Shown: piece after piece, positions 41,186 to 63,900 of the stretch | How the letters are laid out: every line of letters starts with the position of its first letter | Numbering within the stretch: the first letter of the stretch is position 1 | Position numbers and translations under genes: made by a program | Notes under the pieces: model-generated | Told to the model about the DNA's origin: nothing | What the model saw: the letters and a program-made list of their open reading frames with translations, nothing else | The model's database searches: none | Assembly (NCBI GenBank): GCA_044892525.1 | Contig: CM097888.1 | Span: 2,914,001 to 2,978,000, forward strand | From: Schmidtea polychroa | Lineage: Eukaryota | DNA length: 64,000 bases | Direction: 5' to 3'

Positions 41186-42129
41186 GCCTATCATATATTT
41201 CTTGGTATAGAATCAAAAATGTTTGGAAATTCATATTTGTAATATCCTTCGTTGACCGAATTATTTCGTGCTTTGATTGCTAATGCGAATTCTTTAATAA
41301 AACCTTTAATTGGCTCAGTTAAATATTTGTAATCACTGGCCTTCATTTCAATCTTTCATAATCTTTAAAGATAGAGTTATTTCAGGGAAATTTGATGCTT
41401 TTTAGATGATTTTAGTGAAATATTTGTAATGATATGAATTAAGGGTAGAAATATAGTCATTTAAGATATTTTAAGGAATCTTGTTAGTTTGAGGTGAATA
41501 TATGATCTTTAACAAATATTTATCATTAAAATGCCAATCTTTAAATATTGATATATTTCAGGGAAAATGATTCTTTTTAGATGATTTTATAGGAGAATTC
41601 ACTTGGATATACCAATTATTGTCATTTAAATGAATTTACTGGTTTATTAGATGTTATTATTAGTTATCTAGTCTCTTTTGGAATTTAATGATAATTATTT
41701 TTATTGTAGATTGATGACTTTGATAATTGTAATGAATTTATACTAATTTTTTGAATATATTGAGCAATCAGTCAATCGATTTGAGTACTTGTATTACTTT
41801 TAAAAAAATAGTTAAAATTAATTTTATTTCAATTAATTTATTCAATCTAAATCAATTATCTACTAGATCTTATTTCAAAATCTTTATTAATTTATTACCT
41901 TAGTTGATTCATATTAAATTGATTGATCAATATTTTTATATTTACTGGATGATTAATGATTAGAATTCTTTCTTGTCCATTAATTACATTTTTATGACAT
42001 TTATTTTGAAAATTTAAAATTTTTACAATTATTTAATCAATTTTTACCAAGTTATTGATGCCTTGAGTTCAATTAATTTTTCATCCAATTTGTCAAGTGA
42101 TGAGTATTTTCTTTTAAATATATATTTGT

Positions 42130-42830
42130 TAGTACATAGTTGTAGGTTGTAAGTAGTTGGTTGACTTTTTAGATTTTCATAAGAAAATAGTGTATGTAAT
42201 GAAGAATATTTTGTATTTAATTGCTATTATTTTTATGTGTGGTTAATTGATTGTTGGTACTTGGTATCTTGTTGTTGGTATCTTGTATTTGGTAGTTGGT
42301 ACAGTGTTGTTTACTGATTGTTGTTATATAGTTGTAGGTTGATATTTGTTAATTTCTCGATGGGTTTTGATAGTGGTTGTTAGTACATGGTAGTCAGTTG
42401 TAAGTGTTTAGTATTTTGTTGTTTGAAACCTAGTGGTTAGTACATGGTAGCTAATTATTGAGTAGGTGGGGTTTGAGTGTGACTAATATTGCAAGTGAAG
42501 AGGATTTTCTTTTAAAGATCTATTTGTTAGTACTTGATTGTTTTTACTTGGTTGTTAATACATGTTCGTAAGTTACTGGTTGATGATACTATATTGTTGG
42601 TATCTTGTACTTGGTAGTTGGTACAGTGTTGCTTACTGATTGTTGTTATATAGTTGTAGGTTGATAATGCTTAGTACCTGGTTGATGTTGGTTGTAAGTA
42701 CTTGGTATCTAGTTGTTAGCTGATTGATAGTACTAAGTAGCAAGTTAATGGGTAGGTGGTGGTTGAGTGTTACCAATACCCTTACGACTAATACCCTTAC
42801 GACCAGTACTCTTACGACCAGTATCCTTAG
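42130..42830. repeat. Degenerate ~300-bp tandem duplication plus four copies of a 15-bp repeat
   Basis: 73-bp near-identical repeat at 42272-42344 and 42594-42666; C(C/T)A(A/G)TA(C/T)(C/T)CTTACGA units at 42773-42830. Confidence 0.8.
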
Positions 42831-43537
42831 GGGGTCAAAACATCCTGTCGGATAAACTCAGAGTATATATAATAAAACTGATCAACAATAAGTATTTATT
42901 GAATGCGATTTTGTCATTGCAATAATAAGTCAGTAGTAATCAATTAAAAGAAGAATGTTTTGTAAATTAGAATTCTAAAGTCTTTCATTTTAAATTAAAT
43001 TATTGTTGGGGTCACACCTCGGCTGACCATTCTACCATGTTGGCGGGTCTAAGGGTTGATTGTCCATCTCGAATAAAAGGTGCCACCGATTTGTCAACCT
43101 GGAGTGAAACCCCACATAACTTTCTTCCAACATAGTGCCCGTGAATCACTTCACGTTGGTACTGCACTATGCAGGCGAGACGCCAGCAAGCAGGTGAGCT
43201 TCTGCCTTAAAACTACTCCTTGCTGAGGCCTCGACTTCCCATTCACGACTGCCGATAGAAGGGCTTACGTCCATTTCCTTACACAACCACCTATCAGGAT
43301 TCGCTGAATGCAAATTGGGAAATTCTCACTAGATCTTGCGGGTCCTCTTCTCAACCCACTTAATTAAAGTCTAATTATTCAGGAACGAAAACGTGTAAGA
43401 CAACAAGATTTATTAATTTCAACGTTATGACACAAGGATTCAGCTGTACACTTTACTAATGTTTGTCGAAAGAAGAGAAAACATCATAATCAACATAGAT
43501 CGGATCCTTGTTCCTCATCCTGACCGCCACTGGGGTT

Positions 43538-44326
43538 TTATTGTTTCTCCCATTCAGTGTCGGCGAATAATTCGTCGAGGTTGAAAAACTCGGAAGCGTT
43601 CTCTTCCCACCTTACGCCAGCGGCTGATATGATTCGCGCTGAGGGTCCCGTTGTTAGGTCGATGGACACGTGAGAGTTGCCACCGTTAGTTGAGTCCTCT
43701 ATTGATGGGATGTTTGGCTTTGCAGTAGCGCGCTCGCGCTGTCTCTTCTTGCGCTCTGCACGAGAGAGTTGTTTGCGCTTGGGTTTGCTTGAAGATGCCA
43801 CTTGCAGAAGGGTGACTGATACAGATGGACTAGCAGTGGGGGGCTTACTGGTACCCGTGATGACAACATCTGGACGCTTGGGGGACCATTCGGTTTCGAC
43901 GCAGTCTCGGCACGGTCTCTTGAACGGTGGAGATGGATTCGAGGAAAGGTTGTGATGAGGCGGAAAGATGTCATCGGCCTCTCGGATGGGAATCTGCACG
44001 ATTTTTCGGGTTGTAGCCGCCTGCACGTAAACCTTATGCAGTGCCTCGGATTGTTCTCTGATTAGACTTCTTTGGGCACGGCTCTCAGATATTAGCGCGT
44101 CCCGGCAATGCTCGCTACGATCGAGCTTCTTTTGGATCTCTTTCATCCGAGCGGGACTAAACCATGTCCCTTCCAGCTCGTCTATCTTCCTCTTGTAACG
44201 TCCAATCTGAGTTTGTAGGTCCTTTATCACCGTATTTTTATCCGCGCACGAGAAGCATGGCCGTAATGCCGATTTAGTGGTTGGTAGCATGCTTGCTATA
44301 AATAATACTAATGAAATGGAGAACAT
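43538..44326 (-). CDS. Unknown protein: CxxC, coiled coil, second CxxC, basic NLS-like tract, acidic/aromatic C-terminus; probable start ATG 44290
   Basis: 262-codon ORF containing PCFSC, PCRDC, KPKRKQLSRAERKKRQR and EFFNLDELFADTEW. The stop overlaps AATAAA, and acceptor TTATTTATAG lies 5 nt before ATG 44290. Confidence 0.65.
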   Translation of the reverse strand: MFSISLVLFIASMLPTTKSALRPCFSCADKNTVIKDLQTQIGRYKRKIDELEGTWFSPARMKEIQKKLDRSEHCRDALISESRAQRSLIREQSEALHKVYVQAATTRKIVQIPIREADDIFPPHHNLSSNPSPPFKRPCRDCVETEWSPKRPDVVITGTSKPPTASPSVSVTLLQVASSSKPKRKQLSRAERKKRQRERATAKPNIPSIEDSTNGGNSHVSIDLTTGPSARIISAAGVRWEENASEFFNLDELFADTEWEKQ

Positions 44327-46374
44327 ACGATTTTAGAATAAATTAGATACGACCCGCGTCCATTCGTGGATACTTGACCGTCGAAAAGAAGGAAAACTTA
44401 TTCTACAATCCGGTTTTACTACGGATCTTAGTTGTTAAAACAGTTTATTTAACCAAATGCCCTCGGTTTGACGCATGTTATGAACTTTGACTATCTATTG
44501 ATCTAACTGTATGCATGAGGGACGTAATAATTGATAGGGTGTAAATATAATATTGGTGAAACAATATAATAATGCTTTAGTAGAGGGACATTATAGTATG
44601 CGACCAAACCTTGCTATATGTTATCTATTTTAATTTATTAAAAACAAATTACTATCGCTCTCAACATATTTTTGATTCGAAATTTGTTATTGGAAGTGCA
44701 CTTTTAATTCGGTAGTGAATGTGATTATCTATGTTGTCTACCATTGGTCTGAAAATATGTGATGAGTTTACATCAGCCATTACTTTAACACCCTCATGGA
44801 AAATCCCATCGGTCATAACATATCCAAATTTACGGATACTGCTGTCGACTGGTTGATTACGTTATCGACCTATTGTGAATGTCACGTGTCGCGACTACTA
44901 TGTATGCTAGTCTGATATTCTGTGCTCTCACCGCATGGATTCGTGTATGGCTACTATCTTATCTCACTCACTTGGTGTATGCCATTTTCACGGTGATTTT
45001 ATCGATCCTGCTGTCGTATGATTTTCTCTGCACAGTGATTTATTTGAGTTATGATTTATGCTACCGCCAGTTCTCATCGCGGAATTTTACCCTTATCAAC
45101 TTGTGTGAATGATCACCATCGTTTGGAAATTTATTGGATCTTTTCAGTGATCGTCGAGGGAATAATTCTACCAAATACTGGAGCATATTACTACTCTCGT
45201 CATTCTACTCGGATTTTCCTATTCAGATGTAATGCCGTCTCGATGAAACCTGTCCTTTTCTCTCAGGTTCAATAATTTGGATATATACAGTGATGACCTG
45301 GCTCTTATTGTAGAAATAAATGTTATTAATTAAATTTGGTGATATTTTACCTGTTTATAATTTTTGAAATAACTAAGTCTATAAAAACTTTCTGATTATA
45401 ATACTAGAGAGGTTTTCGTAGAATCTCGTATTTTATAGTTTCGAGTTAGTTAAAGTTTTTAGAATACTTTCGTAACCTGACATACAATCTGGACAGGTTA
45501 GATGACATTGGGTCTATGATAATGGAATTTCATACGAATTTAGTTCTACTGAGTCCGGCAAATAGACGTTGTCGCAATTAATTTGATAAAACCATGTTTC
45601 CAGATGAAGCGTACTATGAGATGTTGTTATTTTTGACGAAGTTCACTAAATCGTGGTCTGGATCTCTTTTTTCAATAGGGGTAAGACTTACGAAAACGAC
45701 TTGACGAAAGAAGAATGCGACGCCCTCAATCACTGTGCAAATCCTTGAAAATCCCTTCATTCGTATGACTATCTTTGTGAAATCATTGTCTACCGGTTAT
45801 TTTTTATCCATACCCCATTGTGATAATTTAGTCGCATCTTCAGCGATAGGACCCGTGAAGAAGCCTTCACATTTCGGCCCAATCTAGCTGCGCGATTGAA
45901 ATACTCCATGTCCACCGGCTGAGCTCCCGAAGGCACCTCATACCATGACATGGAGTATCTCAACTCCACGTTACTCGTTAAATGAAAATTCATAAAATCT
46001 TTAATTCAAATAAAATACGGACATCTGGATAAAAATATTTTATTGATTCTGAAATACTTAAATAATACAAATTCCATCAATACGTTAAAGTTATTAAAAT
46101 GGAGAATCAAATGAAGAGAGTTAACTAAAATGTTTAATCGTTAATATTTAACATTATTATTAGCTTTGCAAATACTTAAATAAATCTATAAACAAATGAA
46201 ATACCCCTTACTATTGTTAGGCTGAGTCAAAATTCAATGTTGTTCGTTCCAAATAGTTCTAATGGTGGTCCGTTGGATGTCGATTATTGTGATGAATGGT
46301 ATTTCGGTCTCTGAACTGGTTTTGAATAGTCGTGGAGTTTTCTGAATGACGGTTGCTTGGCTAGTAGTGTCGAT

Positions 46375-46453
46375 CCTATGAAATGCTCGGGGTTAACAGT
46401 AAAAACAGTAAACATTCTTTCTTACCTATGAAATGCTCGGGGTTAACAGTAAA
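46375..46453. repeat. 29-bp direct repeat in the putative 3' UTR/LTR
   Basis: CCTATGAAATGCTCGGGGTTAACAGTAAA at 46375-46403 and 46425-46453. Confidence 0.9.
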
Positions 46454-47071
46454 TTTAATGTTTTTGGTAGTTGTATATATATCAAATTCTTATTTGTGCG
46501 GACCAATCAGAGTTGAGTACCGCTTATTTCTATTAATTTAATATAATTTTCTTGTTTTTAGGTTGTTTTTTCCTTATTTTCTTTATTTTTAATATGTTTT
46601 TCTATTTATTTCCTTAATTTCCTTATTATTTCTTGAATTCCTCTTTATTTATTTGTCAACTTGTTCTATTTTAATCTTTTCTTAATTTTATTTTTTTTGT
46701 TTTAATTCTTATGTCTTAATTATTATTTTCCTTATATCTTATTCTATTTTATTTCTGATTTTATTTATTTTATTTTTATTTTTCTTAATGTTCTACTTCC
46801 CTACTTTCTTATTTTTCAACGATTAAATTTTCGACTCAGCCCAACAAATCACTCGGGGACCCATCAAAATTGCGTCCCGCAATTGCATAATTAACTTAAT
46901 TCATTCATTCAAAAAAAATATAACACGAACACGGAAAATTATACAACAATGATAAAAATTTTATTGTAAGATCAAGGTCAAAGCAAGACCAAGCAAGTAT
47001 CACTTAAGGTGATAGTTGGTACATACAATAAAAGTTTCCACATATAATAACACAAATGTTTGAATTAGAGT

Positions 47072-47740
47072 TTATGAATTGTTAACCATTGATGCTTCTG
47101 CTGGCGGCTGTTGGTTGGTTTGGGTATTGATGTTGAGATAGGTCTGACTATTAGATTTCGGCTGGATTGGTTGATTACTCGGGGTTCGAGGTCGGAATGG
47201 GGTTGGGTTAAGATTTGTCAGGGGCACTTCTTGAGGATTTTGGTTCGAGGTTACTCTTATTGATGTCGAGATTCTACATCTATTTCGAACTTCGTAAATT
47301 TTCATGAATATTGGTAGACATAGGAGGAGGGTTTCTGCGATCACCACATATATGAGATAATGGGCGTTATTGATTTCGGGAGGTATTTTTGGCTTTTCTA
47401 CCAGATTTCCAAAATTCTCTTGTTGCATTTGTTGTTCCAACTGGTCGAATTGTTGAATTTGTTCGAGGATTTGTTTGTTTATCATTTTACAAATGGGATT
47501 CTTTTTACACATTGTTTGGATGTTGTTGATGTGTGATCGGGTTGATTGAATGGTTTGGATGATATGGGTTTTTACGGTCATCGGGTATGTGCATTGACTG
47601 GATTCTTGTTTAGGTTCTTGATTTTGATTTCGGTAATCTCGTACGATTTTCGGTTGGGCGTCTATTTGTTTGCTCTCCATCAGAATCATCAATACCATCA
47701 TTGTTATCATCATCTCGCCTCGCATGATACTATTATACAT
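47072..47740 (-). CDS. Accessory type-I membrane protein (signal peptide, Gln-rich helical ectodomain with 3 Cys, TM, Pro/Gln/Asn-rich tail)
   Basis: MMITMMVLMILM signal-like segment; YLIYVVIAETLLLCLPIFM TM; probable ATG 47725. Confidence 0.75.
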   Translation of the reverse strand: MYNSIMRGEMMITMMVLMILMESKQIDAQPKIVRDYRNQNQEPKQESSQCTYPMTVKTHIIQTIQSTRSHINNIQTMCKKNPICKMINKQILEQIQQFDQLEQQMQQENFGNLVEKPKIPPEINNAHYLIYVVIAETLLLCLPIFMKIYEVRNRCRISTSIRVTSNQNPQEVPLTNLNPTPFRPRTPSNQPIQPKSNSQTYLNINTQTNQQPPAEASMVNNS

Positions 47741-47780
47741 TCATTATGTTTATTTACAATTGGTTTTAATGACCCTTAAT

Positions 47781-48533
47781 TTAATGGTTCTGATTTGGAT
47801 TATTTTCGCCGATTCTCATCAAGGTGGACTCTGCTTTAATTACCCTGTGTCTTAACTCGGGCAGCATTTCCAATTGTCGGTCTTTTTCGCGGGCTTCTCT
47901 CTTTAGATGTCTAATTTCTTTTTCCAAGCGTCTAATTTCTTCCCTTTTCTTTTCAAGGTTTCTTTTTAGCTCGATTTGTAGGAGATCTTGTTCGTTTTCT
48001 TGCAGGTAATTTTGTTGTTGATGTTTTCTTTCTATTTCTCTATATTTGCGGACCCACTTCCTCATTTCTTTACTTTCCCGTTGGTTTTCTTCTAGTTGTC
48101 GTTTTAATTTATTTATAGCTGTTTGGCGCTCCTCCGCCTCAGTTTTCCAGTAGTCTTGGATTACCTCCTTTGCTTTGAAGCTTGCCCTCTCTTTCCATAG
48201 TTCTTCCGCTATCTTTTCCCAGTTTTTCCCTCGCTTCCTTTGTTCGTGTAGCCATTCATTTTCCTCTTCCGTTTCTCTTTTTATTTCCCCCAACGCTTCG
48301 CACTCTTTCTTTAACACCTTTATCATTTTCCGGTCCTCTAGGTATTTGTTTATTAATCTCCCGTTTTCGTATTTCTCTTCCCGTAACTCGGCCTTTAGCG
48401 TTTGTGTTTCTGTTGTTTCTGCCTCAATCTCTCCCTCTTCTACGTCGCTCATAATTTCTATCATTTCCTCGATTTTCATATCTATAATATGTACAGTTAA
48501 TGGTGCGCTATAGTGCGACTTATACGTATACAT
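47781..48533 (-). CDS. Accessory coiled-coil protein
   Basis: 250-codon E/K/R-rich heptad ORF; probable ATG 48479. Confidence 0.75.
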   Translation of the reverse strand: MYTYKSHYSAPLTVHIIDMKIEEMIEIMSDVEEGEIEAETTETQTLKAELREEKYENGRLINKYLEDRKMIKVLKKECEALGEIKRETEEENEWLHEQRKRGKNWEKIAEELWKERASFKAKEVIQDYWKTEAEERQTAINKLKRQLEENQRESKEMRKWVRKYREIERKHQQQNYLQENEQDLLQIELKRNLEKKREEIRRLEKEIRHLKREAREKDRQLEMLPELRHRVIKAESTLMRIGENNPNQNH

Positions 48534-48588
48534 TGATATAAAATTTAATAGTTTGGGTTACAGTCCCTTGAATACTTTTACAATACTT

Positions 48589-48591
<3 letters not shown>

Positions 48592-48628
<37 letters not shown>
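48592..48628 (-). repeat. A37 tract on the element's sense strand
   Basis: 37 consecutive T on the plus strand between two accessory ORFs. Confidence 0.95.
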
Positions 48629-48629
<1 letters not shown>

Positions 48630-48677
48630 TTTGGGATATACGTCCCGGTTTTTAGTTTTTCATCTTTTCATCCACCC

Positions 48678-49787
48678 TTATACGAAGGTTTCCTCCTGGC
48701 CTACATAACCTTCATCACTATCGACCGCGGGATGTAACTGTATCGCAATAGGGTCGTATGGTAGGTAATATTGGGGGATTTGAGCTCTCAATTCATTAAT
48801 TTCGTCTCTTAGAGCTCGAGTGATGTTCAATTCCTCGTCGAGCAGATAGGTGAGATACCTTGTCTCTTCGTCTTTCGCCTCTATCTGTTTGTCTAGGGCC
48901 TTGATTTTCTCGTCGCCCTTCCATTTTTCAATTTCTATTTCTAAGTTTTTAATATTTTCGGTGTACATTTTCCTTTCGTTTTCTAATTTTCTGTTTTTTC
49001 CCGCTAGGACCATGTTTCTTTGTTCCAGCGATCCTTGTAATCCATTAAGGTCTCTTTTCATCTCTTCTACCTGATTTACTAATTCCACAACCCGTCCCGC
49101 TTGTTGGGTTATCATCTCTTCCATTGCGGCATTCTCGTGCTCTCTTATGTCGCACTTCATTGCCAAATGTCGCTCAAACTCCATAGCCTTTGTTTGCCAG
49201 GTTTGGCTTCGGGCGGCGACCTTTCTCAACCTTTTCAATTCTTCCTTTATTATTAAATTCTCCTCCCATTTACCTTGTTCGCTTTCATATCCGAGTCTCA
49301 TGGGCAATTCTTTCATCTCTTTTTTCATTTCTCTGTTTTGTCTTTTCCATTTTCTCGCTTCTGCCACTAAGTGCATCATTTTCCTGTCTTCTATTTGTTT
49401 TTCCGCTTCGCGCTTGGTGTTCTCATCGGTAAGTCTTTTTCTCGCTTCCTGCACTAGCTGCTTTAAGTAGTGGCTGTGTGCTTCTTGGCGGGTATTTTCT
49501 AGTGACGCCCATTTTGATGCTCTTTTGCATGCTTCTGCTTCCGCTCTTAAGTTGTGTATTAACCATTGGTATTGACTATTCTCATCTTCTCTAGTTTCTT
49601 CGATGTGATTTCGGGTGAGATTAGTTAGTTGGAACATTACTTTGTTCCATTTTTTATTATGTTCTCGGGGAATTTGTGTCTTGTTGACATTGGTTGGGGC
49701 TATCGCAGTTTCGGTTATTTTCTCTTGTGTCATCTCTAAATCATAGACATCGATTAATCTTTTTATTATGAAAAGGAATTTATTCAT
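48678..49787 (-). CDS. Accessory long coiled-coil protein
   Basis: 369-codon heptad-rich ORF; probable ATG 49733. Confidence 0.8.
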   Translation of the reverse strand: MNKFLFIIKRLIDVYDLEMTQEKITETAIAPTNVNKTQIPREHNKKWNKVMFQLTNLTRNHIEETREDENSQYQWLIHNLRAEAEACKRASKWASLENTRQEAHSHYLKQLVQEARKRLTDENTKREAEKQIEDRKMMHLVAEARKWKRQNREMKKEMKELPMRLGYESEQGKWEENLIIKEELKRLRKVAARSQTWQTKAMEFERHLAMKCDIREHENAAMEEMITQQAGRVVELVNQVEEMKRDLNGLQGSLEQRNMVLAGKNRKLENERKMYTENIKNLEIEIEKWKGDEKIKALDKQIEAKDEETRYLTYLLDEELNITRALRDEINELRAQIPQYYLPYDPIAIQLHPAVDSDEGYVGQEETFV

Positions 49788-49925
49788 TATTTACTGTTTC
49801 TTGGGAAATTTTCGCATCATTTTTGGGTTTTCGTATTTAGGGTTTTCATACTATTATTATATAATATTTTATTGGTTATATACACCGATATATACAGATT
49901 ATTATATACAACATTATTCGATTGG

Positions 49926-51314
49926 TTACTCCGTTCTACCCTTCTCCTCTTTCCTCACGGTCATCTTGATATATATGGTATCATTTCTCGCCATATCTTC
50001 TACTCTTTGTTGTGAGATGAACGTAGGTGCTCCTGTTGCTGATCCTTCTTCGTTGAGGGGCCTCTGGTAAGCTATTTGATTCCCCGTTGTTTTGAAGCTT
50101 TGCTCATGTATACTTTGGTTGTTCATCAGAGTAATATCGATTTTTGCCTGGAACGGCCATTCTAATATTTCGTCGTATTCTCCTTTACATAACAGAAAGA
50201 AAATCGAAAAGTGCGTATCCAATCCGGTTCCGTCCCCGTTGGGATATACCTTCATTTTCATTTTGTACCCATTTTTCCAAGAATGGAATGTAGGACTTGT
50301 TATTCTTGTCTCTTCTCCGGTTTTTGCTTTTCGTATTCTTTCTTTTACTCCCGTTATTTTCCATATGTAGGGTGCTGTTGGGGTTATCTCATTTAGATTT
50401 ATTTCCCGTATTTTCTGATGTAGCTCCTTGGCCTGATTATTACTGATTTCTGTTCGGTTTATTTGCATCTTTATGTTTGCTCGGGCTTCTTCGAACGCTT
50501 CCCTTTCTTCTAGTAGTTCTTTGACTAACACTTTCAACGATGTTATCTCTATCTCCATTTGTTTTACTTTCTCTTCGCTTTCTTGTAGCGCAGTCGACCA
50601 CATTTCTGCGTGAGTTGAAGCATTTTCTACTAAATGATGTGGTAACTCACCTCGGTGTAGTAGTTTCTGACAACCCCATCTACCTAGTACACATGTCATT
50701 CTTTTCTTTGCGCATTCCCTTAGATGCTGTGCCACCTTCATTATTTCCCCTTGGTTACATCCGTTTGGGCATTCCCCACTGAACTCTGCACATACTCTCT
50801 CCTCTTGGACATTGTGATGTTTGAGGGTGAGATTTATCCACGTATCTATTTCTCCACAGTGTTCACATCTTTCCAATCTCTCTTCACACTGCCTTTGATG
50901 CTCTTTTTCTTCGCTTGCTCGAATGGTTTTATGGCACCTTTCACACTGGCCAATTCTGTACATACATTCTCCCATATGTTGTACTACCTTCCATATTACT
51001 CCTTTCCATTCGCATGGGGCATTTTTGCATCCCAGGTTGGTGTTTAACATGTCTTTCACTGCGGCTTTATCCTCGTTAGTGTCTTCTAAACTCGATATTA
51101 GTGTCTCTTTACACACCGGGCACCTCTGTGGTCTATTCTTTATTGCTTCACTGATACATTCTTTACATACTCTGCATCCACATTGCGTTTGGTGAGGTTC
51201 CTTTAACAACTTTTCACATATTCCGCACATAACATGTTTGTGTATTCTGATCGTTGTAGATTTTCGGACTTGCTCGACAATCTCTCTGAACTCTTCTCTT
51301 TGTCGTTTATCCAT
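49926..51314 (-). CDS. Full-length intronless TRAF-family protein (RING, TRAF zinc fingers, coiled coil, MATH)
   Basis: RING CGICEKLLKEPHQTQCGCRVCKEC...CPVC; fingers CKNAPCEW..HMGEC, CERC..HQRQC, CEHC, CPNGC..HLREC, C..GC..H; MATH PYIWKI...SPTF...GYKMKMKVYPNGDG...HFSIFF...GEYDEILEWPF. Confidence 0.95.
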   Translation of the reverse strand: MDKRQREEFREIVEQVRKSTTIRIHKHVMCGICEKLLKEPHQTQCGCRVCKECISEAIKNRPQRCPVCKETLISSLEDTNEDKAAVKDMLNTNLGCKNAPCEWKGVIWKVVQHMGECMYRIGQCERCHKTIRASEEKEHQRQCEERLERCEHCGEIDTWINLTLKHHNVQEERVCAEFSGECPNGCNQGEIMKVAQHLRECAKKRMTCVLGRWGCQKLLHRGELPHHLVENASTHAEMWSTALQESEEKVKQMEIEITSLKVLVKELLEEREAFEEARANIKMQINRTEISNNQAKELHQKIREINLNEITPTAPYIWKITGVKERIRKAKTGEETRITSPTFHSWKNGYKMKMKVYPNGDGTGLDTHFSIFFLLCKGEYDEILEWPFQAKIDITLMNNQSIHEQSFKTTGNQIAYQRPLNEEGSATGAPTFISQQRVEDMARNDTIYIKMTVRKEEKGRTE

Positions 51315-51399
51315 TCTATAATTATATGTACAAATAGTTCTTATCGATACAGGTTCGATATTTTATTTACAATTATTTACATTTTAAGCTAGGTTTGGT

Positions 51400-51783
51400 T
51401 TAGGGTTCGGAAGAGTCGGCTTCGTGCCCGCTCTCCTCTCTATTCATTAGCCATTCCGACCAGTCTTCTATTTCTGTCTGTTCTGCTTCCTCCCTCATTC
51501 GGTCTATTTCAATTTCCTGTCGACGGCTATATTGGGTTATCCTCTCTATCTCTCTTTGCATTTGTTCGATTTTTAACCTCTGGTCTTCAATTATCTTCAA
51601 ATAACTAAATCCTCTGTTCATACTCTCGATCAGGTTTCTGTGCATCGTCAGTCCTTGTTCTTGCAAATTGGACACTAATTGTGCTAATACGGCACATTGT
51701 TGCTTCCATAATTCTTCAGTTACTGTATTGTGGTTCATTTCGTTATTTCCTTGATCCATTCCTAATTTATATACACTTTTCAA
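51400..51783 (-). CDS. Small accessory coiled-coil protein with acidic C-terminus
   Basis: 127-codon ORF; probable ATG 51759. Confidence 0.65.
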   Translation of the reverse strand: MKSVYKLGMDQGNNEMNHNTVTEELWKQQCAVLAQLVSNLQEQGLTMHRNLIESMNRGFSYLKIIEDQRLKIEQMQREIERITQYSRRQEIEIDRMREEAEQTEIEDWSEWLMNREESGHEADSSEP

Positions 51784-51919
51784 CTCTTATGTAAATTTAA
51801 TTTTATTTTATGATTCCCGTTATTGTATAATATTGATACCGCGCTTATATAGAGATATAGTACTGTTATATACATAAGATATACTTACTTTTTACAATTA
51901 TATACAGTCATATTCCTTT

Positions 51920-54900
51920 CTATATACGTGAGTTTGGAGGGCGCTGAACGTTCCAGGCCTCCACCCACTGTCCTTGTTTGATATCACTTGGTCGTTTCAC
52001 TCGATGTTGGAAGTTTCTGATTCGGGTCATTTCTAGTTCTCCGCGATGTCGTTTATCTTTAATTATTTTTATTGTTCCCCCCGTTATGATTAGGAATGCC
52101 CCTGTTATTATTATCCCACTGATCCACATCATCTGCTTCACGCTTATACTCTCTGGTTTTTCCTTGTTGGTTAATGTTGATATCGCTTCTGTACTTTTCT
52201 CGTTTCCTCTTTTGCCATTTCCTTTCATCATTTCCCGTATTCTTGCTATTTCCTCGTTCATACCCTCCTTTGCCATCTTTTGTATTTTTTCCATCTCTTC
52301 CTCCGAAACATAGTTGTCCTGAGCTTCCTCACCAGTTTTCTTGTGCTTTCCTCCTTCGTTCTTTTCGTCGTGGTTTTTTCTTTTCTTTCCTCTTTTCCCC
52401 GGGTATCGTCGGCATTCTCTTTTTGATTCAATCCTCCAGATACAAACCGTGTATTCTTTCGGCGGCTGCTGCTGCGTCACATATTGATGGCATCTCTCAC
52501 CTGGTCCTAATCTTGAAATACAGACTTTGTGCTCTTTTCTAGGTTGGATCTGCGTTATTACTACTTCACCACCTTTTCCTAGGTGTACCTCTTTTCCTTT
52601 GACGTTCGTTATTCTCTTCCCGTCTCGATTTCGGTATGCTTCTTGTATTCTTACTTCTGTTATTGGTTCTGTGTCCTCATTTATCAGTACTAGTTTCTGA
52701 TACGCTCTAGACATGCATCTTCCTAGTATGCACCTTTCCTTTAAGTCCCATTCTTCCTTTAAATCCCACTGCTGCTCTTGTGCTTGCTTTCTCTTTTCTT
52801 GTTTTAGTTCATCCTCTTTGCTATCTTGATTCTCCGCTTCTTTGGTTTCTTTTATCGTTCTCGTCCCTCCCTGAGCTGTTACTAACTCTATCATGGTAAG
52901 CATAATTATCATTAATATCATATTTGTCTCTATTTCTTTGTTAGTGAAAGGTAGGCATACCCTCTGTTTTCCATTATTCGATTTTTCCTCCTCTTTGGTC
53001 TTGGTTCTCGGGCTGTTTCCCTCTCTTTTCGTATCCGAATCCTTGTTTTCTGGTTTACCCTCCTCCGGTTCTCTTTTCTCTTTATCCTCCTTTCGGTCTT
53101 TTCCGTTATTGTCATCGTGTTTATCTCCCTCGCTGTCATTTAAAATGTCGTCCTCGACATTTATATCGTTCAATAATCTGCGATATGCTGTTAGCACTCT
53201 GTTTCTTGCTAATTTTGCTTCGAATTCAAACTCTTTTCTACCCGTTGCAGCATGTCTCTTTCTATTCCATTCTTTAACTAACTCTCTCAATTGCATACGA
53301 CGATGTTTCCCAATTCGTTGTTGCTCGTTCTGATTTTGCGTGAATTTTAGGTCTTCTCTATTTAATACTATTAAAATAATTTTAGGCGTCCCCCCCTTAG
53401 TTAGGGTATTCTTTACCATCGCATTTTCTCCGTTTTCGTAGAATTCGTTTACATTTATCGCATATTTATTATTTGGTGGTACTCTCCAGGTTAATAATAA
53501 TTTCATTGCTTCTAGATTTTTCCGTACTGTATTCCATTGAAACTGAGATGTGTTTTTGCACATATTTTCAACTTCTTCTTCTGTCGCATTTTTGCAAATA
53601 AATCTGATCATTTCTAAGTTTGGCTGTATGGTTGCCCAGTCCAAGGTGGAATTTCCTTCATTGGACCTTTCGTCTAGTTTCGATCCTGATTGATGTAGGA
53701 TGTGGAGTGTTTTTGGGTGTATTTTCGTTATAGCTGCATACATCATGGCGGTTTCACCTTGTTCATTTTTCGTGTTGGTTTCCTCGCCCATCTCCCCAAG
53801 GATTCTCATGATCGTTATTGTTCTATTCTCTTTTGCAGCTAGTATTGCTTGTTGTAGGGGTGTTCGGGAATCCTTCGTTACCATCGTAAATGCTCGAGGC
53901 AAGAAGGTTTTGATTTTCCCGATATCTAAACCCGTGGTTTGATCTCTTGCGTATGTGTGTACGGCTTTTATTATTTTGGACAATATTATTTCGTCTGGCA
54001 GCTCTAGCATTTCCTCAAAGAACACTTCTTTTGCTTTGCGTATTATTGCCTCTTGATCTATACTCATTGATTTGGTTTCGATGACGTTGTTTGTGACCGT
54101 TCGGTTCGTTGTTGACTTTGATTCCCTGGATTTCTCATACCTTATTTTCGTTTTCTTTCCGTTTGGATTATTGATTCGTTCCTCTGCTGTAAGTATTTGG
54201 ATAATATCCATGTAATTCTCGCGGATGTTATTCATCGTGTCCATCATATATAACACACTTACTGTTTCCCAATATTTATGTCGTACTTGGTTAGTAAATT
54301 GGAATAGTGATTTTTCGAATGTGTCGATTCGCTTTTTTTTTAACTGTTCGTCTTTGTGATTTGTGAATTTTATCCCTCGTTCTAGTAATTGATTCGGGAT
54401 TTCGAATAAATGATGTCCTTTCATAGCTTCTCTCATCAGCGTGTTCTCTCCTCTCGTGAACGCTTCGTTTACGTTGATCATATAATCGTTTCGAATTGGA
54501 TTTCTCCATGTAATTAATATTCCGGTAATTGTCGTCAGTTTTTCTTTGATCGCTGTTAGCAATCCATCATACATGTTTCCGACTTCCCGATTGTCCTCAT
54601 ATGATAGTAGTTCCATCAATGACGTGAACGCCTCGGTGCTTCTCCCTCTGATAGCATGATGTAGAGCGTTTTTCCGCTCGTGGTCTTGTGTAGTTATTTT
54701 CGATCCGGTATCGAGTAATGCAGTTATAATGTCTTTTGTTTTGCCTCTGTTTGCGGCTATCATTAATGGTGTGTAACCTTGGTTGTTTGTTTGTTCTGTT
54801 GATCGCTTGCAGTCGTGAAATGCTTCTATTGTTTCTAGTATTTGCTCGTTGTTACCTACTTTCATGAGTTTGTGTAATGGTGTGTCTCCGTAATGATCTG

Positions 54901-57900
54901 TTATTGTAAATAATATTGGCCATTGGCTTTTGACTACTCGCAATAATGGGTGTGTCCTTTCTCTATTTGCATAGTTCTCGATCATCGTCAATAATCCTCC
55001 TAATATTTCGAAATCTAATCGATCTTTCGCCCATCCAGGTATTTTAATTTTTACCTCTTTTACAATCTTTTCCGCTTCTGATGGTTGGATACCTAATCGT
55101 CCAGTGATCGGTTCTGCGAGTTGTTGCATCATGTTCATTCGGTAGGTTTGCGAACGTGTGGTTAATGTACGGCCTTCTGGTTGACTAGTGGCTGTTTTTG
55201 GAATTGATTTGCATCGTGCCACGTTTACGTATATTGGTCTGGTAAAGGGGTTATTTACCAATTTCACTCTTACATTAGTTTCGCCTACGAATAAGATCTC
55301 ATATGGTCCTTTTCCGTTGCGTTGTAACTTTTTTGTGGTTCCTGGAATTAATTCCGGGGTTTCTATCATTACCCAATCACCTGTTTGGAACGTATGTTGC
55401 TTCACGTTTTTCTTTCGATCGTGTAAATCTTTATAACTTTCCTGGTAGAACTTGATATTTAATCCCGCAGTTTCCCAAATTTCTTGCATTCTTTCCTTGA
55501 ATTTCGTAACATAATCATCGATCTCCATATACTGCGATATCGGTGGTTGGTATTCCAGGTCCATTGGCATATTACATTCTCTTCCGTACATTAATTTGAA
55601 TGGGCTCATTTTCGTTGATGCGTGAATCGACATTCTGTACGCCATAAGACATAGGTTTATATATTCGTCCCAATCTCGTTGGTGACGGTCAACGTAGTTT
55701 GATAACATTTGTATAAGTGTTCCATTAAATCTTTCCGTCATCCCATTGGTTTGAGGGTGGTATGGAGATGTTCTTAGTTTTGCTATTTTGAAGTAATTTG
55801 TTACTTCGCTCATTATCTCACTCATAAAATTTGTTCCCTGATCGGTTAAGATTTGTTTTGGTGTTCCATATCGGCAACATATCTCTTCTACCAAAATTTT
55901 TGCGATTGTTTTAGCTTTTTGGTCTGGCATCGCGAATGCTTCTGGGAATTTCGTAAGAAAGTCTGTGATCACCAGAATGTAAACGTTTCCTTTATCTGAC
56001 TCTGGTAGTGGACCAACTACGTCCATGGATATCATTGTCATTGGTTCTATTGGTACTGGCATTGGCGTTAAAGGTGCTTTCCATTTCGATCCCGTATTCT
56101 TCCTGGTTGCACAAGTTAGACAATTTTTTACCCATTCGGTTACATCTTCCGTTAACGTAGGCCAAAAATATTTCTGTTTCATTCTTGCTAACGTCTTTTT
56201 CGATGACATATGTCCTCCCAATCTCCCATCGTGATATTGCGTTAGTAACTCTTTTCGTCGGTTTTCCGGTATACACATTAATCGTTTTTCCCCATCCATT
56301 ATCAGCAACCAATCTTTCTCTATAATATATCGGTGTCGGTGTTTATCCATATGTTCTTTTAATTTTTGGTCTTTCGCATATACATCTGTCTGTCCGGTTT
56401 TTATATAATCGATAATTTGTTTTAATTCCGCGTCCTCTTGTTGGTCCTTTCGCAATTGACAGAAATCCAAATCTTCCGCTACTATTAAGCATATGCGTTG
56501 CATTTCTGAATCCACCAAATCTGGGAAAATAAATCTTGACATACAATCGGCGTTGGCATTTGCTCTTCCCGCTTTAAATTTTATAAATGGGGAGTATTCT
56601 TGCAATTGCATGGCCCATCTCATCAGTCTACTGGACGCTTCTTTATGTTGCCCTAACCACACTAATGGTTGATGGTCTGTGGTTATGCATATCTCATGTC
56701 CCCATAGTAAATATCGGAAGTGTTTGATAGCTTGTATTATAGCCAATGCTTCTCGTTCTGTTACCGAATAGTTCTTTTCGTGCTTTTTGAATGTTCGACT
56801 GTAATACCCGATTACTCTCTCTTTTCCCTCATCGTCCAATTGTCCCAGAATCGCGCCTGCCGCGTACCCGCTTGCATCCGTTGCCAATAGAAATGGCTTC
56901 TTAAAATCTGGGTGTACGAGGATAGGTGCTTCGATTAGTTTGTCTCTCAGCGTTTCAAACGCCTCTTGTTGTTCCTTCCCCCATAAGAACGAAATGTCCT
57001 TCTTTACTAATTCCTGGATTGGTTTTGCAATTCCTGCATAATTTTTGATAAATTTGCGATAGTATCCGCATAATCCTAGAAATTCCTGAACTTGGGTGAC
57101 AGTTTTCGGTGCTGGACATGTTTTTATTTTCTCAATGTTTCTTGGATCTGGCTCCTTTCCTTTAGCTGACACTATGTGTCCTAAAAACGTGACTTTTTCC
57201 TTTGCCCAATCGCATTTTGATGGTTTGAGTTTGAGTTTCCACTGTCTTAATCTAATAAATACGTTTCGGATATCTTCTAGATGTTGTTCAAATGTCGCTG
57301 AATAGATTAGTAAATCATCAATATATACCATACATTGTTTGATTCCATGGGTGACAAAGTTCATACACCGTTGAAATGATGCTGGTGCGTTAGTCAGTCC
57401 AAATGGCATTTTCCTGAATTGATATAGATCTCGTCCCAACGTGAAAGCGGTTTTCTCTTTGTCCTCATCTTTGACTTTAATCTGCCAGTATCCACTTTTT
57501 AGATCTAAAGAAGTAAAATATGCTGCCCCTTGCAACATCAATAACATCTCATTGATGTCCGGCAATGGATAGGTATCTCTCTTGGTCACTGCGTTTAACT
57601 TCCGATAATCGATACAGAATCGTTGGGTGCCATCTTTCTTTTTCACCATGACCACTGGGAATTGCCAGGGTGAGCAACTTGGTTCGATTACTTTTGCGTC
57701 TAGCATCTTTTGTACTTCTGTTTCGGCTATTTCTTTCTGCATTTCTGCTAGCTTGTATGGTCTCAATGCAATTGGGGTTTCGTCTATGAGTGGTATTGCA
57801 TGTAAGGTAACATCACATGTACCCAAGTCTAAATCTGAGATGGCGAATATATCTTTATATTCTACCAACAATCGGTGCAATTTTTTCTTTTCGTCATTCG

Positions 57901-60900
57901 TCAACAACATACTATCTATTGTCCATAATTCATCATCTTTGATCATCTCGTTGGTCACTTTCGGTAATTCTATGTCCATCATTGGGGTCAATCTTCCCAA
58001 TTTTTCGTTCTCATAAATGATTTTGTCTTCCTCTTCGAAATTCGTGATGTTGAGCGGTATCACTCCTTCTTGGTTTATTGTGATTATTTCTCTTGCGAGT
58101 GGTAATTCTCGTCGCTTTTCAAATGACTTGCTTGGTTCAAAGATAACTTCTCCTTCCATACCCGTATCCACTTTTATCTGACAAATCATCTGTGATTTTG
58201 CTGGTACTATTATTTTTTCTGGACATCTGATGACTGAATTCATTTTGCATATTCTACCGGTTTTGTCTTTTAAACACATGGTTGTTAAGTCAATTACGAC
58301 TTCTTTTAACAATTCTGGCATCAAATCCGTTCCGATTATGCATGGTACGCTAAGTTTTGGTATTACTGCCAAATACGTTTCAATTTCGTTGTCCTGGTAT
58401 CTCAATGTAGTCCACCATCTTCCGACCACGTCCACTGTTTCTTTACTACATGCTATGATGTGAATTGTTGTTGATTCGATATCCTTCCAGTGTTTACTGG
58501 GGATTTGATTAATCGCTATCGCTGATACATTAGCTCCGGTGTCTATCATAGCATTGGTTTCTTTACCATTGATTTGAATCATAACTGTTACTGCTGGACC
58601 TCCAGGTAAACTCATCGCTGCTATTGTTCTTACGTCATCTGCTTGATCTACACTTTTGGTACGTCGTGTTGGCATATAATGCATACCGGGTTGACTCGGT
58701 AATTGCGGATACATATTTTGTGTCATGGTCAAAGCTGTTTGTGGTCCCACGATATCCGGTGGTATATAGCTTCCATTGGCGATCCAGGTGTTTGTCTTTT
58801 CCTTTTCCCAATATGGTGCCGTTTCCATTGGTTTTTCGTTTGGGTTTCTGTTTGGATAAAGACATTTATCGTTCCCGTTATCATCGTCGTCACTATCGCT
58901 GTTAGATGATTGGCTTCTAAATCGGTCCAAGAATTTTGGCTTATTCTTTTTCAATTGTCGTCTTGTTGCTTCATCGTACATTACTTTCCGGAATCGTCTG
59001 CCTACTTCCTCGTCGGTTCCTTTAATCTTTGTTAATATTTTAATCAATCGCTTTATCCGATGAATGTCTTTTGAGTGGCCATGTAATACCATGGTCTTAG
59101 CTAAAAATGGTAAGAAGCCTACTATCATTTTCCAATTAACTTTCTTTTCCCGCTTGTATATATCGAAACAAGCTAACATTTGTGTTAGTATTACTCTGAC
59201 TATCTGAATTATGAGTATGATCCCTAATATCCCGGCCATCATTTGTCCAAAAACTAAGAATCTTCCCCACATTGCTTTCATCATGTTTGACGTAGCTTGT
59301 TGAAAATGGTCTGGCGATAATAGCAGCTCGTAATTCGGGCCTGATTGATAGTTTGTGCCCCCAGTTATTGTTACCATATTAGACAAAATGGATTCTCGTC
59401 TGGCTGGGAAGAGTACGTTGAGTCGTGCTGTTTCTAGATCTTCTGGGGAATACATACCACCGTTTGACACGTCTATAGGTTTGAAATCCAGCTCTGTGGC
59501 GAGTTCTATTAATCCAAATTTTTTGGGCTCCTCGGATATGGTTTTTCCCGGTAACATCATCCATTTCCCATCGGGCCTTTCATATAAAGGTCCGTATGCA
59601 TTAGAACAGTTAAAGAGATTTGGGTAGAAACCCACTGGATTCATAATTCTAGTGACTGGTTGGACGAATCGATTTTGTCCTTTATAACGGATTTCTAATT
59701 CATTTGCACATCTCTTTTCGGGTAGTATGGATTTTTCTGGCATTCGTGCATACGTCTTGGTACACTGGTATGTGTACATCACTTCTCCTACCATTCTACC
59801 AAAGTGTCCATCTGGTAATGGGAGTGATGGCATCGTGTTATCTGGGTGCGTTATCGCAATAGCTAGCTTTGTTTTCAATATTTCTTTATTCAATGAACAA
59901 TCGTTTTGTATTAGATCGTAATATACTTTTTGCAAGGTCGTTTGTCCGCGATGAAATAGAAAATCCATTTTATTATTTGCATATAAGTATAGTTTTACGT
60001 CCTCCGTTGCTATCTTTCCCACTGCTCTATCGATTATTTGTCTCGACATATAGATACCTGCGTAATTGGTTTTATATACTATACTGTCACATTTGGTGGT
60101 TTCTTTCTCTTTGATAAATCTCATACCTAGATCTGGATCGTCTGTGATTAATGCTGTTGGTGTCTTCTGCGTTGAAAGTCTCTTTTCTCTGGGAGATGGT
60201 GGCATTGGTTTTCCATTTCGCATTCTCACTCTGTCGTTTCCATCCTCGTCGTTCTCGTTCTCATATATTTCTCCTTTTACTTCATTGAACAAAGCACTTT
60301 TTAACAGTTGGAGTCGGCATTTTTGGGTATTAGCTTCATAGATTATAGTTGATACTCCTGTCCTGCATACGTTTTCTGTAGCTCTACACGTTGGGTTGGT
60401 CTTCATTTGGTAATTATTTGCGTCAAATTGCGCTTCGTATTCTTTTAATTCGACCGTGTAAGACTCGATCACTACAACTCCCGATATTACCTCGCCTCGG
60501 ATCGTATACGTACCTCCGTTACATGACCCATCTGATGATTTTACTTTTCCGGATACGTAAACACTTTCGGTTTTAATCATTCCAGTTTGTCCGTGAATTG
60601 TCACTCCGTTATGCATTTTTAGCGCTCCGGTTCTAAATAGCTCTTTACAATCCTCTCGTTGTATTGATACGATTTCTTTATCCAGACCGGGTAGTATAAG
60701 AGTCGAATACGAATATTGTCCACAGTAATATGCGAGTACCTTTTTTGATACTACGCATTCCCTTGCTTGCGTTCTGATGAAATCTGATTCTTGATATACA
60801 TGGTAAGTAACTTTTGTTCTCACGATGTCCAATTTGTTGGGTGAGGCTTGTCTGCATTCTTCTATGTCTCTCAATGAGTATTTATCTCTCATTATCATGT

Positions 60901-63900
60901 TATCACAATCGTAGATGGTGAAACCTGTTGCTCCACTTGTGCACAACATCCATATCATCATAGTCATCATTAACGAATTTATTGATGCTTTTCTGCTTGC
61001 GGGATCTTTCATCGGTAGTTCCCATTCTAGTTCATTTAACAGTTTTTTCAATCTAACTTGCATCGACCTTTCTTGCTCATTTTTCCGTGGCGCTTGTATC
61101 AGTCTTTTCCATCCTCCTGCACGAATAATGTGTGGTTCAATAGTATTCTCTATGATTGAAACGGTCATTTCTACATGATTTGCAAACTGTTTATTTGGTA
61201 TTTTCCTCGCAGCTAGTCCCATCAAATTATACATCAAATAAGTGATTACCACTAGGTGATGCTCGTCATCATTTGCATTTGTCGTGAGCTGCTCAATCAC
61301 TCTCTTTGTTTCGTCCCAATCCGTTTTGGTGGTTTTCGTTTTCTCTTTGATTAACTTTGGGATTATCCCCGAAATGGTGTGCCATAATTGTCTAGCTTCC
61401 GTACTGGCTACTTTCCGTTGCCACAGACGTCTAAGTTGTGGGTTTGTTATTATTAACATATCTTTTAACAATTCTCGTATCCATTTTTCTCCTCTTTCGA
61501 TCGTTGGTTGGGCTTCCTTTAGATCCCATACTATTTTATCCAATTTTTCTAATCGAACTTGCCCTTGTTCTTGCTTTAATTGTTCTTTGGTTTTGAACTC
61601 AGACTTTTCTCCTTGTTTCTTGGGTCTTCCTTTTGCCCGTTTTTCCATCATCGTTCCTGCTTCTCTGGTATTTTCGTAATTCGGATTTCTTTCGTTATCC
61701 GTTCTGGGTAATGAGCTATCGTTATTTCTTAGCCACTCATTCCATTCGTCTATTATTTTGTCGGTTTGACTTTCTGGTGTTACTTTCGTTGGTTCTCTTT
61801 GCTTCTGGAATTGTTCATCCGTTTCGGTTTCCGTAGTATTGTCGATGATTTCTTCGATGTTCAGTTTCGTTGGTTGTTGATAACTCGTTGATGGCTGGTT
61901 ATTAGTCCACATTTCGGCTCCTGTCGGCCATCTCACTAATAGCGGTGATCTTTCTCCTGGTTCATCGTCACTATCTTCCAGGATTATCTCTTCAACTTCT
62001 TCAGTTTCATTAGATTTACTTGGTGCTTTGTTCGGACTTGGAGTACTCAAACTGCCTTTTGTTGGTTTAATAATTTTACTTTTCCTTTTTAACGGTTTTC
62101 CCAACGTTTCTGCCATTGTTAATACATTTGTCTCTTCCAATCTCATGGGGGTTATCCCGACGTCTGCATTATCGTCTAGTGATTTTCCGAACAGTTGCAG
62201 ATGGAATGGAGTTTCATATGCTAATTTCTTTTTTAATTCTCTAATTTTTGTTGTTGGATGCACCTCTAGTTCCTCGATGCTCTTGTCTGGATACTTGATT
62301 CGGATGTGATACCTCTCCTGGGTGTCTTGTGCCCATTCCTGATTTCTCCATTTTCGAATAATTTGTTCTAGCTGTTCTGGATACCATTCATTATATTGCC
62401 GGTATTCCTCTATTGCCTTTGCCATTCCTCTCAGATTGTGGATGTCCTCTGATGTCTTTAAGATGATGTTAGCCAACGCTACTACTTGGCGTCTTTGATT
62501 TTTCGCTCCCATTGCTAAGATATCGCCTAATTGTTTATATCTTTCTTTCTCTTCTCGTTCTCTTGCTTCCGTCGCTTCCTCGCCGTCCATATCAGCATAT
62601 TCACGTTCCTTTTTCCTCATTGCATGAATATGTCTCGCTTCATTTTCGCTTTCTGATGTGACATCCGTCTCGCCTTCGTCATCTGATGTCTGTTCCCTTG
62701 CTTCCTCTTCATATTTTGGAGGTTCCTCTTCTTCTTCCTCCGATTCACTTTCTGTCTCACCAATGTCTGTTTCCACGAAGGTTCCTTTCCGGATTTCCCA
62801 TTCCTTACTTTCTGCATTCCACACTCTTTCCCATGGGGTTCGTCTGCAGGATCTGGTGCTTAATTTCGTGATTTTTCCTTGTAGTTCTTTTTCTTTTAAC
62901 CATTGTTGGTGGATTTTAATTATTTCCGTAGATTTTTGATATAACGTTTTCATCCGGTCTCGTATTTCTTTTTGATAGGTTACATCTCTTGTTCGAAATT
63001 CATCCATTGGTACTATCCTGATTATCTGGTGATTGTCCCACATACCCATTTCGCTTAACGAGGTGTCGTCCTCCGCTCGTAATATTATCTTATCGTACAT
63101 CATGACTACATCATCCACCATACCATCACTACTTTCGCTACGTACCTTTTCCGTTATCTCTTGGTTTATTTTTGATACCAAGTCATCTACTGTACTCTGA
63201 TTGCTCATTTTTATTCGTCGTTTTTCTTCGTTCGGTAACCATATGGTTATTTCCAACCTCTGTGGCTGGGTTTCTTTTAACCTTCCATATTTGTGGATCA
63301 AATTTATGGTTCTCCAATCACTCATTCGGAGCATTTCTGTATCTCGCAACCGGCTCATTAGTTCGTACATGGCTGGGGCTCGTCTGGTGATGAGTAAATC
63401 CCAGTTGTCTTCTACTTGTTCTTGAATTTGTTTGATCAGCTTATCCAGGTTTCGTCTCAGAGTACATTGTTTTATTTGTTCTAATTTCAATTTGATATTA
63501 AAATCATATTCTGCCTTGGCATCTTTAGCCCAATCGTAAAGGTTGGCTGGTTGTTTTTCTTTATGCAACTTCAGTATTTGCGTTTCCCCTGGCCATATTA
63601 GTGCATCTACTAAGTGCATATCTGGTTTGATCGGTTCTCCTTGGTATTGATACAGATATTCTTTCTTTCTCGAACTTCCCAAATGCTCTCGTATCCAATC
63701 GAAAAGTTCGTCGGTGACTGTATTTTTTATCCACATTCTTTCAAGTCCTCTACTCGTTCCGATTTTTATTACATACCGCGTGGTATCGGCCTGCTTCATT
63801 TTTTCCATATAATTTTTTATAATTGATTTTTCCTCGTTTGGTATTAAATCTTTCTCGTTTCTTTCCAATTTCATCACTTTTTGCACGAATCGCCTGAATG

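Follow-up and report, generated by a model that had tools for sequence, protein, structure and literature searches.

The 64,000-nucleotide (nt) window analyzed here (Schmidtea polychroa, assembly GCA_044892525.1, contig CM097888.1, positions 2,914,001 to 2,978,000; positions below are those of the window) carries on its minus strand the 3' part of a Burro-like gypsy element of 29,768 nt, which extends past the window and was measured together with adjoining genome stretches. Its long terminal repeats (LTRs) are 3843 nt long and 99.95% identical, with a 4-nt target-site duplication; the element is a young 29.8-kb Burro-like gypsy retroelement. It has eight open reading frames (ORFs): RING (161 amino acids, beyond the window), gag-pol, A, TRAF, C, D, E, and F (Table 1). 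Gag-pol is a single ORF of 4617 amino acids, in which gag (with CCHC) and an in-frame env precede protease (PR), reverse transcriptase (RT), RNase H (RH), and integrase (IN) (Pfam PF03732 and PF00098, then PF24664, PF00077, PF00078, PF17917, and PF00665, in order). Ankyrin repeats (PF12796) belong to this polyprotein; the MATH/TRAF domain (PF21355) is encoded by a separate ORF. An initial annotation had described an operon-like array of six accessory ORFs, each with a splice acceptor just before its ATG. An AG does precede all six, but the array proper consists of five ORFs, ORF F lying inside the 3' LTR and hence being duplicated in the 5' LTR; array and ORF F form the 3' end of the minus-strand LTR element. 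The ORFs of this element are, on balance, probably expressed by cis-splicing of one AUG-free LTR leader onto alternative acceptors.

All six AG/ATG contexts listed in the initial annotation are present, and they resemble acceptors of the host gene WASHC4: with a matrix of 10 WASHC4 acceptors, placed by homology, the six sites score in the top 0.1–9.7% of the 2360 AGs of the element (host sites rank at 0–32% in leave-one-out scoring). A YAG lies 0–5 nt before the ATG in 5/5 spacers of the array, against a shuffle mean of 0.53 (0/5000 shuffles reach 5) and a background in which 12.5–17% of ATGs have such a YAG; the pattern is not due to chance. In spacer 3, the candidate acceptor before 49735 reads TTTAG, with TTAAT at −22. 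The spacers, given earlier as ~40–145 nt, measure 160, 85, 192, 198, and 55 nt from stop to chosen ATG, and each contains 1–7 ATGs upstream of the AG, which splicing at the AG would remove. Only four ORFs (C, D, E, and F), not five, had been given a downstream in-frame ATG, 51759 and 51314 being the first in-frame ATGs of their ORFs.

Conservation was assessed on the window and 20 diverged copies (21 aligned), with counts covering copies that have the ORF start; six copies with insertions or rearrangements (L054, L061, L065, L067, L070, and L072) were left out of the counts for spacer AGs, TGTAHATA, and AATAAA. The expectation that the acceptors are conserved among related copies holds for five of the six ORFs: with the window included, a YAG adjoins the ATG in 17/17 copies for TRAF, 19/19 for C, 21/21 for D, 18/20 for E, and 19/19 for F, with TAG/CAG swaps. 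It fails for ORF A, which mostly has AAG, and the TAG of the window is a subfamily variant. For ORF F, the pyrimidine tract and YAG are kept where the flanks no longer align. Beyond the window, where 18 stretches were fetched and those lacking the ORF left out, RING has a tract and a YAG two bases before its ATG in 13/13 copies, and a strong pyrimidine-rich acceptor precedes gag by ~560 ATG-free bases in 12/12 copies, such that a conserved YAG is found at seven of the eight ORFs. In the 28 closest copies (94–100%), the AG is kept at all sites that aligned (for spacer 3, from 27/28). Genome-wide, the acceptor G of ORF D is present in 158/158 exact starts, and the AG of TRAF is kept at 149/149 starts (147 in place, two with TAG one base further up). 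The AG–ATG offset drifts (1, 2, 3, or 4 nt) and is a multiple of three at only 1/91 array sites; such free drift is what one would expect with an AUG-free leader. The upstream in-frame ATG is absent from ORF C except in the subfamily of the window, from D in 9/21 copies, and from F in most, which supports the choice of the downstream ATG in these three ORFs.

The accessory proteins had been proposed to derive from subgenomic mRNAs, made either by cis-splicing or by spliced-leader (SL) trans-splicing. The cis route gains a concrete and conserved partner in the LTR, comprising promoter-like boxes, two ATG-free exon-like segments, and two donors, whereas the SL route gains nothing specific. Across copies, the predicted exon 1 is 23–26 nt long and ends in YAG; it is followed by a GTAA donor, an intron of 45–54 nt (comparable to short host introns of 42–52 nt), and an exon 2 of 135–191 nt ending at GTAAG. 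The succession of TATA box, exon 1, and GTAA donor is present in 17/21 copies, of which 15 also have donor 2; copy L062 has donor 2 too. Exon 2 contains 0 ATG in 11 versions that are less than 75% alike, against 9.1 expected (0/2000 shuffles), and equal lengths behind donor 2 contain 1–6 ATGs each; in three copies, an ATG stands right at the start of exon 1. The DNA holds a candidate AUG-free leader that ends in a conserved donor and lies upstream of all ORFs. In L062, intron 1 is exactly missing and exon 2 and donor 2 are kept, which may be the DNA trace expected from a spliced RNA, although recombination between the two exon-1 copies would look identical.

The existence of subgenomic spliced mRNAs is well supported, if indirectly. 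Transcription would start ~30 nt after the LTR TATA box, exon 1 would be joined to exon 2, and donor 2 would be joined to one of up to eight acceptors 2–25 kb downstream; the first AUG on each mRNA would be the start of the ORF concerned. The five array mRNAs would mostly share a 3' end at ~46945, ahead of the 3' LTR, and the weak spacer AATAAA would serve as optional earlier ends.

Each ORF had also been credited with its own 3'-end signal. AATAAA is conserved in four spacers, where it or a listed variant lies 25–52 nt before the acceptor in 14–15 of 15 copies, but it is not enriched (6 vs. 4.9 expected, p 0.36), spacer 4 of the window has none, and the sequence downstream is poor in T (fraction 0.13–0.31). 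Among the 72 AATAAA of the element, downstream T is highest after RING (0.64) and next highest after E (about 0.52–0.54), with 0.40 after F; these three are the strong poly(A)-like sites and the only ones with T-rich downstream tracts. This points to three poly(A) blocks, the array probably sharing the site before the 3' LTR. Planarians reportedly lack UGUA upstream of poly(A) signals (PMC5068929), and we accordingly rejected a reading of the spacer TGTA words as CFIm poly(A) signals. The A-run of spacer 4 (48592–48630; 37 nt in the window) was considered as a poly(A) relic, a reading that was dropped given lengths of ~6 to 37 among 28 close copies. Conserved GTAAG...AG segments of 26–27 nt occur at 51889–51863 (minus strand) and in copy L031, around window-extended 66057–66031; both are shorter than host introns (42 nt and more) and are perhaps U1 sites guarding against early poly(A) use.

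The TGTA words of the spacers have a different signature. Eleven of the 17 are TGTAHATA, exact matches to the Pumilio element, against 0.57 expected (maximum of 4 in 5000 shuffles) and 0 in coding DNA, and the individual motifs are each kept in 11–14 of 14 copies. Likewise, TGTANATA occurs 9–12 times per copy in ~670 nt of spacer and 0 times in ~5.7 kb of coding DNA, in 15/15 copies. As described earlier, the TRAF stop is followed by three TGTATATA (49910, 49896, and 49884) and AATAAA (49873), and AATTGTAAATAAA is repeated at 51374 and 47761. The Pumilio consensus is given as UGUANAUA (PMC11182014), and its sense-strand matches lie outside coding sequence; the TGTAHATA words also overlap TATA-like sequence. 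It is speculative, from motif content, that the words act as Pumilio-type repression elements in 3' untranslated regions (UTRs); this would suggest a link to stem-cell translational control.

Table 1. Features of the element in the window (exons, introns, acceptors, and poly(A)-like sites are predictions).
Feature	Positions	Strand	Remarks
Polyprotein ORF, 3' part (Gag-Env-PR-RT-RH-IN-ankyrin)	51920..64000	-	4617 amino acids; start 65773 beyond window
Spacer 1	51760..51919	-	three TGTATATA; conserved GTAAGT (51888); TATA-like TATATAAG (51853); AATAAA (51807); weak acceptor (TAG 51761)
ORF A	51400..51759	-	119 amino acids; without Pfam match
Spacer 2	51315..51399	-	three TGTAHATA; AATAAA 51367; candidate acceptor before 51315
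TRAF-like ORF (RING ... MATH)	49926..51314	-	462 amino acids; Pfam
Spacer 3	49734..49925	-	three TGTATATA; AATAAA 49873 and 49784; seven ATGs upstream of candidate acceptor
ORF C	48678..49733	-	351 amino acids; without convincing family
Spacer 4	48480..48677	-	unstable A-run; TTAAC at −19; TGTACATA; candidate acceptor before 48481
ORF D	47781..48479	-	232 amino acids; charged helical protein, without convincing family
Spacer 5	47726..47780	-	TGTAAATA overlapping AATAAA; candidate acceptor before 47729; conserved upstream in-frame ATG 47740
ORF E	47072..47725	-	217 amino acids; single hydrophobic segment close to residue 124
Strong poly(A)-like site before 3' LTR	46900..46965	-	AATAAA 46965 and GT/T-rich tract; 13/15 copies
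3' LTR, 3843 nt	43004..46846	-	5' LTR counterpart 72771-68929, beyond window
LTR promoter: ATTGG box (46507) and TATA box (46481)	46472..46507	-	~400 nt into LTR
Leader exon 1, 25 nt	46426..46450	-	start placed by TATA spacing; then donor 1 GTAAG at 46425
Intron 1, 50 nt	46376..46425	-	tail repeats exon 1; missing exactly from copy L062
Leader exon 2, 164 nt	46212..46375	-	without ATG; then donor 2 GTAAGG at 46211
ORF F acceptor, pyrimidine-rich	44291..44320	-	exon start 44295
ORF F	43538..44290	-	250 amino acids; inside LTR, hence in both LTRs
Poly(A)-like site after ORF F	AATAAA 43414	-	GT-rich tract

Several points weigh against a common cis-spliced leader. To reach the array, donor 2 would have to bypass three strong acceptors as well as two strong poly(A)-like sites across 20–25 kb, and the array acceptors are without the pyrimidine tracts seen at F, RING, and gag, A (0.29) and E (0.35) being the least pyrimidine-rich. 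The host matrix is based on 10 sites placed by homology, and by its scores the named AG comes first within its spacer for just three ORFs (TRAF, D, and E), ranking second for C and third for A. The ORF A site is weak (TAG in 3/17 copies, AAG one base closer in 14/17), and the upstream in-frame ATG of ORF E (47740) is kept in ~18/21 copies, such that ORF E may start upstream of its AG. The spacers are conserved as wholes (identity 0.73–0.94, vs. 0.64–0.85 for third positions of codons), and 14/14 copies retain several further spacer AGs; in spacers 1 and 4, the named sites are therefore not set apart by AG conservation alone. The copies are mosaic relatives, mostly young, and not independent lineages. 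Finally, no spliced RNA was seen among contigs of doubtful RNA status compared with the window and with copy L068. In the comparisons with the window (sets X5, X6, X7, and X1; listed were 15 of 18 joints along with 23 of 477 loose ends) and with the closer copy L068 (sets X5, X6, and X2; 15 of 25 joints along with 18 of 580 loose ends), the joints and loose ends listed include no leader or SL junction; given these excerpts and the diverged relatives in the contig sets, that result weighs neither for nor against splicing. One X6 contig starts about at the ORF C acceptor and some X6 contigs cross spacers; X5 contigs end in poly(A) at window position 48081 and at positions 2757 and 4886 of L068, all in A-rich sequence. 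Searches for spliced retrocopies gave 0 matches for an exon-1 or exon-2 end with an ATG within 5–6 nt, and non-native bases before TRAF and D starts turned up only in two ordinary diverged copies; such retrocopies are not strongly expected, because the RNAs would lack the primer site.

It is unlikely, in our judgment, that the five 3' ORFs form an operon, in which read-through RNA would be cut after spacer AATAAA and the host SL added at the AG, leaving the LTR leader to F, RING, and gag-pol only. Spacers of 55–198 nt, the AATAAA or variants kept ahead of four acceptors, and the difference in style between array and 5' acceptors all accord with such an operon, as does the biology of the host: planarians including Schmidtea have SL trans-splicing (PMC10899757), and flatworm operon genes lie within 300 bp, with cis-splicing rare at such sites (PMC12582326). 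The conserved cis donor upstream speaks against it, as do the lack of AATAAA in spacer 4 of the window and of T-rich tracts downstream of the others (0.13–0.31 vs. 0.52 after E). Flatworms tolerate out-of-frame SL AUGs, for which reason the frame of the SL AUG is a weak argument, namely that flatworm SLs end in AUG (PMC12582326), which would be in frame at only 1/91 array sites. Cis donors are also stated to out-compete SLs (PMC4558846). Similarly improbable is a combination of two systems, an LTR leader for the 5' genes and a true five-gene 3' operon that would be cut at the spacers, SL-capped, and Pumilio-tuned; if true, a retroelement would be borrowing SL trans-splicing for a polycistronic cassette.

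Foamy viruses use an internal promoter, and one or more such promoters, with spacer TATA boxes starting short RNAs that may or may not undergo a short splice from donor 51888, would be another explanation, though one to which we give little credence. In spacer 1, TATATAAG resembles the LTR TATA box and is kept in 16/16 intact diverged rows, with the GTAAGT donor in 15/16; the TGTATATA motifs overlap TATA-like words, and the acceptor of ORF A is weak. However, donor 51888 is upstream of the TATA-like word and cannot serve a transcript started there, we noted neither an ATTGG box nor LTR-type initiator spacing in any spacer, two of which (2 and 5) are just 85 and 55 nt long, and a start within spacer 3 would leave several upstream ATGs. 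Still less probable is a scheme in which leaky scanning, reinitiation, or internal entry allows the array to be translated from RNAs that are unspliced or few, with the AG as a start-context or RNA-binding motif rather than a splice site. Conservation of the spacers as wholes, TGTA-rich motifs abutting several AGs, and the conserved upstream ATG of ORF E would be explained in this way, but acceptors typically show TAG/CAG swaps and pyrimidine tracts, and an ATG-purged exon with a conserved donor needs acceptors. Scanning hardly reaches ORFs behind a very long ORF, and here five lie behind one of 13.9 kb. The common cis-spliced LTR leader makes exact predictions of junctions, from donor 2 (46211, or 72136 in the 5' LTR) or donor 1 to 70220/44295, 68588, 66334, 51761 or 51760, 51315, 49735, 48481, and 47729, and existing planarian RNA-seq could tell cis from SL splicing.

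Other features of the family were recorded alongside. In 15/15 copies, the tail of intron 1 repeats exon 1 almost exactly (window 46376–46450, minus strand), though exon 1 itself differs strongly between subfamilies, and one X1 contig breaks exactly at donor 1. The 3' end of exon 2 (46214–46236, minus strand) forms an imperfect inverted repeat with the LTR's first 22 nt (46825–46846); most copies retain its TCAGCC-like core, which is found again at the LTR end and in the primer-site region. In L031, one frame is open into gag for ~115 codons between the gag acceptor and the gag ATG (window-extended 66334–65774), and the 5' UTR holds a tandem array of ~74-nt units (window-extended 67041–67520) with a GTAAG word per unit. 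Copies L054–L073 are mosaic, their identity to the window shifting between adjacent ORFs (in L071, A 0.97, C 0.95, D 0.78, and E 0.65), which suggests module exchange by recombination; ORF E and the LTR leader are the most variable parts among them. Twenty loci behind PF24664 matches (L034–L053) were tried as family members and dropped (DNA matches 0, protein matches 1/20); they represent a second, abundant element class with a PF24664 glycoprotein whose DNA is unrelated to the element studied here. A homologue search with ORF C found none, and with ORF D as query 150 of 1511 candidates were scored (identity 75–100%). ORF F has an arginine/lysine-rich stretch (43740–43790, minus strand). Pfam-level searches of the element proteins gave no match to BIR or BCL2-like domains, and an Rfam scan of 42000–53000 gave 0 matches.

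The adenovirus major late unit and HIV-1 combine one promoter, a multi-exon AUG-free leader, alternative acceptors just before start codons, and few poly(A) blocks. The layout here is alike, but it belongs to an invertebrate gypsy element, the scheme is read from DNA only, and the whole leader together with one ORF lies within the LTR. Also comparable is Cer1 of C. elegans, another invertebrate gypsy element, whose accessory CERV protein is reported to come from a spliced mRNA, with acceptors conserved before the predicted ATG across species, as here (PMC10309623). Cer1 differs in making one accessory product from coding exons, whereas up to seven separate ORFs are concerned here; the terms "SL1" and "trans-splic" are absent from the main text of that paper. 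Flatworm operons resolved by SL trans-splicing share same-strand genes <300 bp apart and a YAG upstream of the ORF (PMC12582326), but these are host genes, mostly in pairs, and here a conserved cis donor lies upstream; "transposon" is absent from the main text of that study.

The element itself is of a known kind. Burro/GYPSM1, giant gypsy-like LTR elements of planarians, are described with the same ~30 kb size (just under at 29,768 nt here), a single Gag-Env-Pol polyprotein in which, as here, an in-frame env separates gag from protease, and the same ankyrin repeats, TRAF/MATH cargo, and accessory ORFs (PMC6431247). TRAF is a separate downstream ORF here, but inside ORF1 in Burro1 and upstream in a Dugesia element (PMC6431247). 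Already known, therefore, are Burro elements and their cargo, and a spliced accessory mRNA in Cer1 (PMC10309623). The account of Burro in PMC6431247, as far as available, contains nothing on accessory ORF expression, leader, acceptors, or spacer motifs, and that review leaves open how the largest LTR retrotransposons express accessory genes; in the available text of PMC13524379, on flatworm gag-env-pol elements, "splic" and "accessory" are absent. In the search listings and the texts accessible, neither the transcript structure of Burro nor a retroelement operon using SL is described. The expression layout is real, conserved, and apparently undescribed, in a known kind of element; Burro is strongly de-repressed in smedwi-2 RNAi animals (PMC8532177). 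If the common leader is correct, an invertebrate gypsy element would reach the transcriptional complexity of adenoviruses and lentiviruses, with a two-exon AUG-free leader and up to eight acceptors, and a TRAF gene or other cargo would be easily added, a new ORF needing only an AG before its ATG.

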